From the NCBI RefSeq assembly GCF_013122565.1, contig NZ_CP053258.1: 64,000 nucleotides of DNA, one strand, 5' to 3'. Position numbers and translations under genes: made by a program. This DNA is from Escherichia coli. Its GTDB lineage: Bacteria; Pseudomonadota; Gammaproteobacteria; Enterobacterales; Enterobacteriaceae. Shown here piece by piece: positions 4,982-9,470 of the stretch; position 1 is the first letter of the stretch, and each line of letters opens with the position of its first letter. Under the pieces are notes generated by a model, which saw only the letters and a program-made list of their open reading frames with translations, made no database searches and was not told the DNA's origin.

Positions 4982-5833
4982 GTGTTAATTATCGAAACCC
5001 TGCCGCTGCTGCGTCAGCAAATTCGCCGCCTGCGTATGGAAGGCAAGCGCGTGGCGCTGGTGCCTACCATGGGTAACCTGCACGATGGCCATATGAAGCT
5101 AGTCGACGAAGCCAAAGCCCGCGCCGATGTGGTCGTCGTCAGTATTTTCGTTAACCCGATGCAGTTCGACCGCCCGGAAGATCTGGCTCGTTATCCACGG
5201 ACCTTGCAGGAGGACTGCGAGAAGCTAAACAAACGTAAAGTAGATTTAGTTTTCGCCCCTTCGGTAAAAGAGATCTACCCGAACGGTACAGAAACCCACA
5301 CCTATGTTGATGTTCCTGGTCTTTCCACCATGCTGGAAGGTGCCAGCCGTCCGGGACATTTTCGCGGCGTTTCGACTATTGTCAGCAAGCTGTTCAACCT
5401 GGTCCAGCCGGACATCGCCTGCTTCGGTGAAAAAGATTTTCAGCAACTGGCGCTGATCCGCAAAATGGTTGCTGATATGGGCTTTGATATTGAGATTGTC
5501 GGTGTGCCAATTATGCGCGCCAAAGACGGTCTGGCGCTGAGTTCCCGTAACGGTTATCTGACGGCGGAACAACGTAAAATTGCGCCCGGTCTGTACAAAG
5601 TTTTAAGTTCGATTGCCGACAAATTGCAGGCTGGCGAACGGGATCTCGATGAAATTATTGCTATTGCCGGGCAAGAACTGAATGAAAAAGGCTTCCGCGC
5701 CGATGATATTCAGATTCGCGATGCCGACACGTTGCTGGAAGTCTCTGAAACCAGCAAACGGGCAGTGATTCTGGTAGCCGCCTGGCTTGGCGATGCCCGC
5801 CTGATCGACAACAAAATAGTCGAACTGGCGTAA
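4982..5833 (+). CDS. panC: Pantothenate synthetase
   Basis: Recognised PanC ([18 protein letters not shown]...); GTG start 11 bp after panB. Confidence 0.95.
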
Positions 5834-5839
5834 TACTTA

Positions 5840-5875
5840 ACTGGCGCTACGGCTGATGGCGCCAGTTATTAATTT
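5840..5875 (+). terminator. Candidate intrinsic terminator after panC
   Basis: Inverted repeat ctggcgc...gcgccag (5841-5847 / 5859-5865) followed by T-rich tract, immediately after panC stop. Confidence 0.5.
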
Positions 5876-5928
5876 GCCCTACGTCATGGCGATGACGTCT
5901 GTAAGTGATTATTCATATCGCTGGCAAT

Positions 5929-6110
5929 TTAGTTAGAGTTAATTAGCTTATCAATCTCTGTAAGAGGTAAAGTTGTCACCTCTGCAACGTCTTCCCGAGA
6001 CATCCCTTTACTTAGAAAACGCTGGGCGAATTCCTGTCTTACCTTCTGGAGTTCCTCTTGATATCCCTTCTGAAATCCCTTCTCTTCAAACCACTGCGCC
6101 AACGTCTGCC
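5929..6110. repeat. Copy 1 of tandemly duplicated rpnC 3'-end (tail-encoding) segment
   Basis: About 85% nucleotide identity to 6207..6360 by eye, with 6-bp and 24-bp indels. Confidence 0.7.
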
Positions 6111-6138
6111 TGGTTTCTCTCCGTGTCTTTATTTCCAT
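5929..6138 (-). CDS. Orphan 69-aa ORF homologous to the C-terminal tail of RpnC (free-standing Rpn tail-domain-like small protein); coding status unproven
   Basis: ATG at 6136-6138 with AAGGGA upstream; protein ...TLAQWFEEKG...KGMSREDVAEVTTLPLTEIDKLINSN parallels RpnC tail ...TLAQWFEERG...KGMSREDVAEMANLPLAEIDKLIN; underlying DNA is a diverged tandem copy of the rpnC 3' end. Confidence 0.4.
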   Translation of the reverse strand: MEIKTRRETRQTLAQWFEEKGFQKGYQEELQKVRQEFAQRFLSKGMSREDVAEVTTLPLTEIDKLINSN

Positions 6139-6206
6139 AGGTTCCCTTAATTATCTGGTCAGTTAACAATAACAATTATCTGGCTATAACTGATGATGCA
6201 GACAAC

Positions 6207-6360
6207 TTAGTTAATCAGCTTATCAATCTCGGCAAGGGGTAAATTTGCCATCTCTGCAACGTCTTCCCGAGACATTCCTTTATTCAGAAGACGCAGGGCG
6301 AATTCTTGCCTTTCCTCCTGTCTTCCCCTCTCTTCAAACCACTGCGCCAGCGTCATCATA
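6207..6360. repeat. Copy 2 of tandemly duplicated tail-encoding segment (the native rpnC 3' end)
   Basis: Aligned by eye with 5929..6110 (shared ttagtta...cagcttatcaatctc...ctctgcaacgtcttcccgagacat...cgaattc...ctcttcaaaccactgcgcca). Confidence 0.7.
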
Positions 6361-7079
6361 GACTCCCCTCCCGTTTCCCTGTCTCTCAACACACTGTAAA
6401 ACAAATCCGCTTGTTCAGTATGACCGCGTTGCAGCATATAGTTTTGCATGGCAACTAACTGACTTCCGCTAGTGTACCCTTCGTCGATCAGCGTGACCAG
6501 TTGCTCCAGCAATAACATTAAGTCGCGCTGGCGAATATGTTTTTGCAGTAGTTCGAGAATCGCAATCCGCCGATGTTGCATGATTTCGTCATCCGGTGTG
6601 ATGGTGATATCCACCAGCGGGAAAGGACTGTTATAGACGCGTCGTGCCAGCTCCGGCGAGTAAAACATATCAAACCAGCACATTGAGAGCGGATAAGGTG
6701 TGGCCTCGCCCTGATAAAACAGTATCGGCACCACCAGCGGCAGCTTATCGTGATCCGCCTCCAGATGCCGGTGCATGGCAGCAATAGAATAACGCATCAT
6801 GCGAAAGGCCATTTTCTTATCCGGCTTGCTTTGGTGTTCAATCACAACATGCAGATAACCGGGATTGCCCTGCATTTGCACGGAATAGAGCACGTCCGTG
6901 CTGTGTCCTTTCAGGCTCTCTTCAATGAAACTCCCCGACTCTAAATGAAGCGTGTTGAGGTCACAAAGTTCGCGTAATTCCACTGGCAAATGTATCTCCA
7001 GAAAGTCGCGAGCCGTCTCCGCATGCATTAAAAATTGTTTAAATACCGCATCATGCGGTGTGGTACTCGGTGCATCCAT
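6207..7079 (-). CDS. rpnC: Recombination-promoting nuclease RpnC (YhgA-like, PD-(D/E)XK / transposase_31 family)
   Basis: Recognised YadD/RpnC-like protein; start set at MDAPSTTP (ATG 7077-7079); ORF-track start 7136 is an upstream in-frame alternative; internal in-frame Met-Met at 6354-6359 could start a 50-aa tail protein. Confidence 0.85.
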   Translation of the reverse strand: MDAPSTTPHDAVFKQFLMHAETARDFLEIHLPVELRELCDLNTLHLESGSFIEESLKGHSTDVLYSVQMQGNPGYLHVVIEHQSKPDKKMAFRMMRYSIAAMHRHLEADHDKLPLVVPILFYQGEATPYPLSMCWFDMFYSPELARRVYNSPFPLVDITITPDDEIMQHRRIAILELLQKHIRQRDLMLLLEQLVTLIDEGYTSGSQLVAMQNYMLQRGHTEQADLFYSVLRDRETGGESMMTLAQWFEERGRQEERQEFALRLLNKGMSREDVAEMANLPLAEIDKLIN

Positions 7080-7352
7080 CTTCCCTGCCTTCCGTGTTGT
7101 CTTGCGTGAAGGCAGTATCCAGTCAAGGTGTGCCATCGTCAGCCACCTCTTTAGTGTTTACCGAGCAGCGTTCAGAGAAATTTCAATTGGTTACAGGCGT
7201 TACATGGCACGCTTCGGCGCGGTACGCAAACTGCTGATGCAAATGCCGTCAGATGAGTAGACACTAAACAAAAATCGGGCAATACTGCGTGAGAATTTCC
7301 TCAAAGCAGGCACCGCCTGCTTCGTTAACGACAGGGTAGAAAGGTAGAAGTT

Positions 7353-7733
7353 ATGATTCGCACGATGCTGCAGGGCAAACTCCACCGCGTGAAAGTGACT
7401 CATGCGGACCTGCACTATGAAGGTTCTTGCGCCATTGACCAGGATTTTCTTGACGCAGCCGGTATTCTCGAAAACGAAGCCATTGATATCTGGAATGTCA
7501 CCAACGGCAAGCGTTTCTCCACTTATGCCATCGCGGCAGAACGCGGTTCGAGAATTATTTCTGTTAACGGTGCGGCGGCCCACTGCGCCAGCGTCGGCGA
7601 TATTGTCATCATCGCCAGCTTCGTTACCATGCCAGATGAAGAAGCTCGCACCTGGCGACCCAACGTCGCCTATTTTGAAGGCGACAATGAAATGAAACGT
7701 ACCGCGAAAGCGATTCCGGTACAGGTTGCTTGA
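7353..7733 (+). CDS. panD: Aspartate 1-decarboxylase
   Basis: Recognised PanD 126 aa ([30 protein letters not shown]...). Confidence 0.95.
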
Positions 7734-7736
7734 TTG

Positions 7737-8966
7737 TTATCCCTGCGGCTGGTTACTCACCAGCCGCGACATTGTCTCAAGAGAATCTGTTCTTAAGATA
7801 TAAAGTCGTTTTAGTAACAACGGATTATCCCCCGGTTTTACTTTGCCTTTCATGGTTGTCACCGCCAGGTGAAATCCGGCATCGTTTGCTGCCTTCACGG
7901 CTTTGTCATTAAATCCGCCAAATGGATACGAAAGATACCAGACATGCGGATTAAATTGCGCCAGAGCGCGGCGTGAACGTGCAAAATCAAACAGAATATT
8001 GTGCTCACTACGACTCAGTAATATAGGTCGCCGATAACCATCCACCCGATGCAAAAAATGGGTATGTGACTGGAAATCAAATACATCGCGAATTTCGTTA
8101 AGCTCAGAAACGCTCATAAATTGCAGCGATTTTGGGTCCCATTTCTGCGGGTGACGTTTGATGCGTGAGGTAACAATAAACGCCGTCGCCTTCATGCCAT
8201 ATTGTTTCAACACAGGATACGCATAGCGGCTCACCGACTTGAGGCCATCATCAAAGGTAATCACCACCGCTCGCGCAGGGAGATTGATCTTATTCTTCAC
8301 GTAACCTTCCAGCTGCGCCATGCTCAGTGTCGCGTATCCCCTGTCGCGCAGCCAGGCCATCTGGTTATTGAAAGCGCGTACCGAGGTGGTCGTCGAAGTA
8401 TGGCGAAAACGGGTGTTTTCTTCGTCGCGCAGAATATGGTGATAGGTTAGCACCGGCAGGCCATTATCGGGTTGAGCATCCAGCGCGCTGATATAGGCCA
8501 GTCGATCGCCAATACGAACCTGATACCAGGTTTGATTTAACCTGTCTTTCAGTTTATGCAAAATCGGGTAGCGCAAATTGTCCGCCAGTACCCCAAACGG
8601 CGCACTGCCCGCACTCGGCGCGTTATAGACTGGCGTATCTTTCCAGGTAACTAAGTTCTGATTACTCAGCGGCTTGTTGAGGTCACCCAAACCGTCTTCA
8701 ACTTTTTGTCGCCCCTGAACCGGCTCGAGATGCCCTTTATCGATAAACCCTTTACCAAAGCCAAAATTAAATGCGTAATAACTTGCGGCAGTGGGCTCCA
8801 CGGCAATGATTTGTCCGGCCCGAATATTCCCCACGGTCACCATCTTGTCACCAATTTGCGCCCAGACCGCAGCATTTTCGATGGTTTGCATATAACGGGC
8901 AGGTAACGCGGCACTGACACTTGCGGTAAACAGCATCAGCAGGAGAATAACAGCTTGTTTGTACAT
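7737..8966 (-). CDS. yadE: Predicted secreted polysaccharide deacetylase family protein
   Basis: 409-aa ORF with N-terminal signal peptide ([19 protein letters not shown]); C-terminal half resembles NodB-type deacetylase. Confidence 0.85.
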
Positions 8967-9029
8967 GAAAAAATAACCGAGGGTGAAACAACGCTTTTAT
9001 TGTAGCAAAAGCGCCATCAGAATCGCGGG

Positions 9030-9470
9030 TTAATACTCATACAAATTATGTTTGAGGACGAAAGGCGGATTTTTTTGTTGCTGGTGCCAAAGACTACTCA
9101 CCTCCGGCCCACCCAGTTCGACAATACGCTCGCGAAACTCTGAACTGGTCATGGTTTCACGGCAAGCCATCATCTGTTCAATTAACGGTAACGTGACACC
9201 AGAAATCACTTCGCAACGGGAGTGTTTGTGGCTTAATAATGAAGCCACGCGATACGGTGGCGCTCCGGCTATATCGGTTAAGAAGATGACACCCTCACCA
9301 GAGTCCGCTTCATGCAGAGCATCGCACATCATGCGGCTGAGCATATTAGAGCTTAACCCACGCCAGAAATTCACGGCCCGGCACTGAAGAAGTGCCCCAT
9401 GTTTTTTCTCCAGCGCATCCAGTATCTCTTGCGCCCGGTCATCGTGACAGGTAATTACCCAACCTAACAT
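9030..9470 (-). CDS. yadI: PTS enzyme IIA-like protein (mannose-family EIIA domain), orphan
   Basis: 146-aa ORF (MLGWVITCHDDRAQEILDALE...) typical of mannose-type EIIA; no IIB/IIC/IID partners adjacent. Confidence 0.85.
   Translation of the reverse strand: MLGWVITCHDDRAQEILDALEKKHGALLQCRAVNFWRGLSSNMLSRMMCDALHEADSGEGVIFLTDIAGAPPYRVASLLSHKHSRCEVISGVTLPLIEQMMACRETMTSSEFRERIVELGGPEVSSLWHQQQKNPPFVLKHNLYEY

Follow-up and report, generated by a model that had tools for sequence, protein, structure and literature searches.

In Escherichia coli, the convergent genes panD and yadE abut, and they probably do so because the element that forms the 3' end of the panD mRNA sits inside the coding sequence of yadE and not in a spacer between the two genes. 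According to the favored model, which is given a probability of about 65%, transcription of panD runs into yadE in the antisense direction and is stopped by Rho, and exonucleases trim the transcript to a hairpin that is embedded in the final yadE codons. This model is preferred because the features of the locus match a class of Rho-dependent transcripts described by Dar and Sorek (2018; NAR gky274), whose precise 3' ends are found just past stable, uridine-poor stem-loops. These stem-loops protect the transcripts against PNPase and RNase II, and some of the ends fall within the coding sequences of genes located downstream.

The junction was studied in a window of 64,000 nucleotides of E. coli DNA (RefSeq assembly GCF_013122565.1, contig NZ_CP053258.1), whose orientation is reversed compared to that of E. 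coli K-12 MG1655. In the list of open reading frames, panD, which codes for aspartate 1-decarboxylase, occupies positions 7353-7733 on the + strand and ends with the stop codon TGA (7731-7733). yadE, which encodes a protein of 409 amino acids of the polysaccharide deacetylase family, occupies positions 7737-8966 on the - strand, its stop codon TAA being the reverse complement of 7737-7739. Between the convergent stop codons lies the trinucleotide TTG (7734-7736), and the + strand across the junction reads ...GTT GCT TGA TTG TTA TCC.... The full length of PanD is covered by TIGR00223, the equivalog for aspartate 1-decarboxylase (228 bits, residues 1-126 of 126), and the protein is identical to K-12 PanD (100% protein identity); YadE carries a profile match to PF01522 (Polysacc_deac_1) and shares 98.8% protein identity with K-12 YadE. 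In the annotation of K-12 MG1655, yadE is located at 145081-146310 (+) and panD at 146314-146694 (-), which likewise leaves a gap of 3 bp (146311-146313). Thus, sequence, reading frame list and K-12 annotation all agree with the initial annotation, which had placed the ends of panD and yadE at 7733 (+) and 7737 (-), only 3 bp apart. Its statement that the spacer leaves no room for a terminator also holds, as a consensus scan finds no terminator-like site within the 3 bp. In a comparison of the panD-yadE locus with complete E. coli genomes, the best match was 98.9-99.0%. Elsewhere in the window, an open reading frame of 69 amino acids (5929-6138, - strand), which sits between an Rpn gene and panC, resembles the C-terminus of the adjacent Rpn protein of 309 amino acids; no such reading frame is annotated in the corresponding 73-bp gap between the Rpn gene and panC in K-12.

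The tight spacing is rare within the genome and conserved between genomes. Positions 1-200000 of K-12 contain 23 convergent pairs of coding sequences, and yadE/panD is the sole pair that is too close for an intergenic hairpin: its gap is 3 bp, those of the others range from 34 to 407 bp (listed gaps: 34, 34, 37, 40, 42, 46, 48, 70, 73, 77, 85, 88, 113, 152, 154, 157, 190, 193, 201, 215 and 407 bp). All but two of the 5426 complete E. coli genomes (5424) contain the panD-yadE junction. For comparison across species, one genome per species was scanned with YadE, yielding 70 usable sequences including K-12 and the window. panD converges on yadE in 49 of them (47 species loci, K-12 and the window). 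The gap measures 1-6 bp in 43 of these 49 sequences, among them members of Escherichia, Citrobacter, Salmonella, Enterobacter, Leclercia, Lelliottia and Pseudocitrobacter, Klebsiella indica and others, and 32-64 bp in the remaining six, which come from four Kluyvera, one Siccibacter and one Franconibacter; the two coding sequences overlap in none of the 49.

Twelve nucleotides past the panD stop codon, the panD-sense RNA can form a stem-loop (7745-7767, + strand) of the sequence GCGGCUGGU-UACUC-ACCAGCCGC, with a GC-rich stem of 9 bp (arms 7745-7753 and 7759-7767) and a loop of 5 nt. On the opposite strand, the same nucleotides are the yadE codons CGG CTG GTG AGT AAC CAG CCG, which encode R-L-V-S-N-Q-P. 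The predicted fold energy is -18.7 kcal/mol on the + strand (z -3.35) and -20.4 kcal/mol on the - strand. The GC-rich 9-bp stem and the 5-nt loop are shared with canonical intrinsic terminators; however, the hairpin lacks both the U-tract and the upstream A-tract. The segment GACAUUGU directly 3' of the stem contains only 3 U in 8 nt (2 in 8 in K-12), and a terminator scan, which requires 5 T in 8, does not call the site. Just past the hairpin, the window and K-12 differ by three synonymous changes, and a mild enrichment of C over G is seen over 7768-8087 (C/G 1.1-1.4, GC skew -0.11 to -0.12). A scan of 6900-9300 against Rfam gave nothing relevant, the single match being sR39 at an E value of 0.16.

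The position of the panD 3' end has been determined in K-12 by others. Using Term-seq, Adams et al. (2021; eLife 62438) mapped a 3' end to 146275 (-), which is classified as 'primary panD, antisense yadE' in supplementary file 1. panD and yadE are each named three times in this file, and both of the rows examined give 146275. Indexing of the printed 61-nt sequence context places this end 39 nt past the final A of the panD stop codon TGA and 5 nt past a hairpin of about -18 kcal/mol, as is expected of the precise ends of the protective stem-loop class. Transferred by homology, the steady-state panD mRNA of the window is predicted to end at 7772 (+) and would span 36 nt of yadE, which comprise 33 nt of coding sequence and the stop codon. 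Supplementary file 2 of the same study further reports, in antisense to yadE at 145798 (-), a region of Rho termination with a Rho score of 7.18 (p 8.3e-27). In untreated cells, reads drop from 214 upstream to 27 downstream; in the presence of bicyclomycin, the corresponding values are 412 and 373. Read-through in K-12 thus rises when Rho is inhibited, at a resolution of about 800 nt, since the score is calculated from 800-nt windows, and with an unproven transcript origin, since antisense transcripts starting inside yadE may contribute. K-12 position 145798 corresponds to about 8249 in the window, and the zone in which panD-sense transcription would be ended by Rho, antisense to yadE, is accordingly put at 7773-8249 (+). 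The supplements of SMRT-Cappable-seq and TERMITe contain no data for the panD-yadE locus.

If the K-12 data carry over to the window, these observations suggest the following course of events, in which we infer that Rho acts first and trimming second. RNA polymerase coming from panD would pass the stop codon, enter yadE in antisense, transcribe the U-tract-less stem-loop at 7745-7767 and go on. Rho would load because the panD-sense RNA past the stop codon is untranslated, and would end transcription within about 0.5 kb. Subsequently, 3'-to-5' exonucleases would trim the RNA to the stem-loop, leaving a precise and stable end about 5 nt past the hairpin, at around 7772 in the window. Selection would then act on the yadE codons for R-L-V/I-S-N-Q-P at two levels, that of the protein and that of the RNA hairpin, so that an intergenic spacer would not be needed. 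With the transcripts studied by Dar and Sorek, panD shares the precise end, the stem-loop low in uridine and, judging from the K-12 data, the Rho-dependent read-through. It differs from them in that a convergent gene harbors the stem-loop within its coding sequence, where the stem-loop is kept by compensatory and partly amino acid-changing substitutions.

Evidence for this dual selection comes from the yadE sequences of other species. When 68 sequences were aligned by codon and analyzed in 294 sliding windows of eight codons, the hairpin coincided with the lowest synonymous-codon entropy of the gene (rank 1 of 294, 0.41 bits compared to 1.14 bits on average for the gene). All of the nine lowest windows lie within the last approximately 18 yadE codons (7740-7793, - strand), whose synonymous variation is suppressed as expected of dual coding. 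Arginine is encoded by the rare codon CGG in 66 of 66 sequences and proline by CCG in 67 of 67, whereas the average codon entropy expected from the other yadE columns is 1.42 bits for arginine and 1.22 bits for proline. In an alignment of the panD-sense RNA (58 distinct sequences), 98.1% of the cells form standard pairs, a cell statistic that ignores phylogeny, and shifting the partner by one to three columns lowers pairing to 13-56%. Compensatory changes are seen in three of the nine stem pairs, and none of 500 shuffles matches the observed values. One of these, pair 16/24, joins position 1 of a Val/Ile codon to position 3 of an Asn codon and alternates between G-C, G.U and A-U. It underwent at least 22 state changes on a neighbor-joining tree from which the last 20 codons had been left out, with a single A.C state, and the base at position 1 of this Val/Ile codon is associated with the choice between AAC and AAT for Asn (Fisher p 6.5e-6). 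Furthermore, a C-G pair is replaced by U-A in two Kluyvera, and in Superficieibacter a U-A pair has become G-C by a double non-synonymous replacement (L>R and Q>P). Covariation of this kind indicates that the hairpin is maintained by compensatory substitutions, some of which change the amino acid.

G.U cells are more frequent in the panD-sense (25) than in the yadE-sense (3), an excess that favors a function in the panD-sense RNA, with coding constraint limiting the allowed changes; within coding DNA, however, G.U asymmetry does not point cleanly to one strand, and the two halves of a second inverted repeat in yadE show opposite asymmetry. This repeat consists of the arms AATCCGTTCTTA (7784-7795) and TAAGAACGGATT (7815-7826), has one wobble and one mismatch in the window, and is held responsible for the conserved rare codons TTA-AGA-ACG. 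It does not count as an established structure: although 86% of the cells are paired, compensatory changes are absent and the halves are opposed in their G.U asymmetry.

The six sequences with large gaps show what happens when a spacer is available. All six carry an intergenic GC hairpin of their own, which in Siccibacter and Franconibacter is a canonical U-tract terminator in the panD-sense. Their embedded hairpins have fold energies of only -2.7 to -12.2 kcal/mol compared to a median of -17.3 (Mann-Whitney p 3e-5, with the six sequences representing only three lineages) and fall among the eight weakest of all 70. The embedded hairpin and the intergenic terminator therefore have a complementary distribution, in that the hairpin decays only in genera with their own intergenic terminator. 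A weakened hairpin without an intergenic replacement is present in Klebsiella indica (gap 1 bp, -9.6 kcal/mol) and in an unclassified Enterobacteriaceae isolate with a fimbrial neighbor (-11.4 kcal/mol).

In 21 species, panD is replaced by a gene of approximately 360-420 codons with a fimbrial-subunit-like end, which converges on yadE at a distance of 0-6 bp; one of these neighbors was checked against Pfam and matches PF00419. The hairpin is kept in these species. Because of this exchange of the neighbor and of the lineages with insulating intergenic terminators, 3'-end formation is considered the conserved function, and the comparison argues for selection on 3'-end formation rather than on a specific partnership of panD and yadE. 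We therefore lean slightly towards the view that the C-terminal codons of yadE constitute a portable 3'-end module, which may be used by whichever gene converges on yadE, be it panD or a fimbrial adhesin gene. If this is true, the spacer can shrink to 0-6 bp, and the C-terminal peptide of YadE is forced to co-evolve with the RNA helix of another gene.

The only paper found to name both genes describes the tool ExcludonFinder (Sanmartin et al. 2025; NAR gkaf686), which lists yadE-panD in Table 1 among 165 convergent excludons of MG1655, together with the neighboring pair rpnC-panC. The criterion is an overlap of RNA-seq-defined transcripts in at least 50% of 58 samples, and validation by p19-bound double-stranded RNA was stated not to be feasible for convergent excludons. 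Like other convergent excludons, panD and yadE are located on opposite strands in tail-to-tail order, and their transcripts overlap according to the published data; their distance of 3 nt compares with a mean intergenic distance of 95 nt for E. coli excludons. The initial annotation had stated that the two transcripts must overlap at their 3' ends, which could couple their expression by antisense or transcriptional interference. For panD, this overlap is borne out by the Term-seq end 39 nt past the stop codon and by ExcludonFinder; an extension of the yadE transcript into panD is deduced, the Term-seq data available to us from Adams et al. listing no 3' end on the yadE strand in either LB or M63, and no Rho region antisense to panD.

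Such a coupling could itself be what is selected, with transcription of panD repressing yadE or that of yadE repressing panD, by way of polymerase interference or duplex cleavage by RNase III. This reading fits the excludon listing and the higher synteny reported for excludon pairs in general, the tight spacing kept across many genera and the entry of panD-sense transcription into yadE in antisense, which is evident from the available rows of the Term-seq file. It is nevertheless considered unlikely. With a gap of 3 bp, any 3' UTR overlaps the opposite gene, which makes the listing nearly automatic. Moreover, the 21 species with a fimbrial partner retain both the hairpin and the spacing of 0-6 bp, and three lineages have swapped the arrangement for an insulating intergenic terminator. 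The claim that panD and yadE share a metabolic pathway does not fit the two families either, an aspartate decarboxylase and a polysaccharide deacetylase. The outcome that defines an excludon, mutually exclusive expression with processing by RNase III, is for panD-yadE a putative coupling, and any effect on yadE expression would have to be understood in this sense.

A second alternative invokes collisions of RNA polymerases. In overlapping bidirectional terminators (Ju et al. 2019; Wang et al. 2022, preprint), converging polymerases pause at a hairpin, and head-on collisions end both transcripts without Rho. According to the summary of the work of Ju et al. in the preprint, E. coli has hundreds of such sites, whose RNA is unlike that of intrinsic terminators and whose hairpins position the collisions. 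The panD-yadE element has in common with them the convergent genes, a palindromic hairpin able to form on either strand (-18.7 and -20.4 kcal/mol) and the non-intrinsic appearance. However, these terminators are described there as Rho-independent, intergenic and associated with 3' ends on both strands, whereas the panD-yadE element is intragenic, a strongly bicyclomycin-sensitive region follows downstream of it, and the 3' end mapped in the Term-seq rows available belongs to panD only. In the yadE-sense RNA, the stop codon comes after the hairpin, whose end precedes it by 7 nt, and a transcript ending at the hairpin would be a non-stop mRNA. Collision efficiency is reported to rise with the expression of both genes, and the available Term-seq data contain no yadE end in LB or M63; the G.U excess also favors a function on one strand. 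A collision-type terminator is thus distinctly unlikely and less likely than Rho termination followed by trimming.

Enterobacteria commonly use the codons CTG, CAG and CCG, and the YadE C-terminus SRL[VI]SNQPQG is conserved as a protein, so that the hairpin could be a by-product of this peptide and of codon bias, and the spacing a result of compaction by deletion bias; this reading is highly improbable and largely refuted by the covariation, which includes paired amino acid replacements, and it is further opposed by the fixed CGG and CCG codons, the loss of the hairpin where an intergenic terminator exists and, in the Term-seq rows consulted, the K-12 3' end at the foot of the hairpin.

panD was also examined for an element that could form the yadE 3' end. 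A palindrome, GTACCG...CGGTAC, is located in the last panD codons (7699-7722) and is followed by GUUUCAUUUCAUU on the yadE-sense strand; it was detected by folding, and its inner stem was flagged by the terminator scan. As a conserved yadE terminator it was rejected, since its arms vary at synonymous sites without compensation among the 49 sequences (GTA/GTT, CGT/CGC, ACC/ACT/ACG). Together with its U-rich tail, it may possibly act as a weak yadE terminator in this lineage only. A terminator-like site at 7654-7670 in panD was likewise rejected as a conserved element, as it shows free synonymous variation and no compensation in the 49 sequences. The last eight panD codons display a mild drop in synonymous variation (rank 4 of 104 windows, residual -0.22 compared to -0.68 for yadE). 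Because the panD sites vary freely and the constraint on the panD end is mild, panD yielded no conserved element that could set the 3' end of yadE.

The overlap of panD and yadE is of an ordinary, already catalogued kind, and the pair as well as the panD 3' end had been published; what is added here is the identification of the embedded hairpin and the demonstration of its conservation. No paper describing an evolutionary dual-coding constraint at the end of yadE was found. The current understanding of termination is unchanged by these results, and the case illustrates that an excludon listing alone is no proof of regulatory coupling. It provides a worked example of how bacteria can do without a terminator between two genes, in that one of them carries, within its own coding sequence, the 3'-end element of the gene converging on it. 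It also shows that 'synonymous' substitutions close to the end of a gene need not be neutral. Deletion of yadE or recoding of its last codons could thus destabilize the panD mRNA and thereby affect the supply of beta-alanine and coenzyme A.

The hairpin embedded in yadE (7745-7767) is kept in 21 species in which panD is replaced as the convergent neighbour by a gene of about 360 to 420 codons with a fimbrial-subunit-like ending. This gene lies directly past the yadE stop codon, with a gap of 0 to 6 bp, at the survey loci L005, L008, L010, L015, L018, L028 and 15 others; the convergent gene of L028, the single one of the 21 compared with Pfam, matches PF00419. At the coding end of panD, synonymous diversity is mildly lowered in the last eight codons (7707-7730; rank 4 of 104 sliding 8-codon windows, residual -0.22 bits), an effect far weaker than that seen in yadE.

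The best match to both 7200-9100 and 7600-7900 among 5426 complete E. coli genomes has an identity of 98.9-99.0%, which places the window in a lineage outside that set, possibly Shigella or an atypical Escherichia. Three clustered synonymous differences distinguish the window (GACATTGTCTCAAGAG) from K-12 (GACATCGTCTCCAGCG) at 7773-7782, where yadE encodes T, L and S immediately upstream, in the yadE sense, of the embedded hairpin. These differences adjoin the predicted panD mRNA 3' end on its downstream side, and through all three of them the panD-sense RNA is richer in A/U in the window than in K-12.

A second inverted repeat is located inside yadE, with arms at 7784-7795 and 7815-7826 (consensus AATCCGTTCTTA and TAAGAACGGATT, read on the + strand) and a loop of 19 nt. 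Most Enterobacter, Citrobacter and Salmonella have it as a perfect 12-bp repeat; in the window, one of the pairs is a wobble and another is a mismatch. The repeat explains why the rare codons TTA-AGA-ACG of yadE are conserved. Pairing is present in 86% of cells, i.e., single base pairs in single aligned sequences, a search for compensatory changes across the aligned sequences returned none, and the G.U asymmetry is opposite between the two halves. With this contradictory asymmetry and without compensatory changes, the repeat is regarded as a candidate element.

A statement in PMC12288877 places yadE and panD in a shared metabolic pathway; judged by their family assignments, polysaccharide deacetylase and aspartate 1-decarboxylase, this proposal gains no support.

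Upstream of panD, a 69-aa ORF (5929-6138, - strand; ..TLAQWFEEKG..RQEFAQRFLSKGMSREDVAE..LPLTEIDKLIN) lies between panC (4982-5833, + strand) and the gene of a 309-aa Rpn-family protein (6207-7136, - strand), and is similar to the C-terminus of the latter. The K-12 counterpart of this protein is RpnC, which has 300 aa and is encoded 73 bp from panC, and the K-12 annotation between rpnC and panC contains no ORF equivalent to the 69-aa ORF. The adjacent convergent pair rpnC-panC (window 4982-7136) likewise appears among the published excludon entries (ExcludonFinder 2025). Among the regions reported by Adams et al. (2021) is a Rho termination region at K-12 position 147624 (- strand), antisense to yadD/rpnC, with a Rho score of 16.9. 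Thus, the panBC transcript, too, appears to run antisense into its neighbouring gene.
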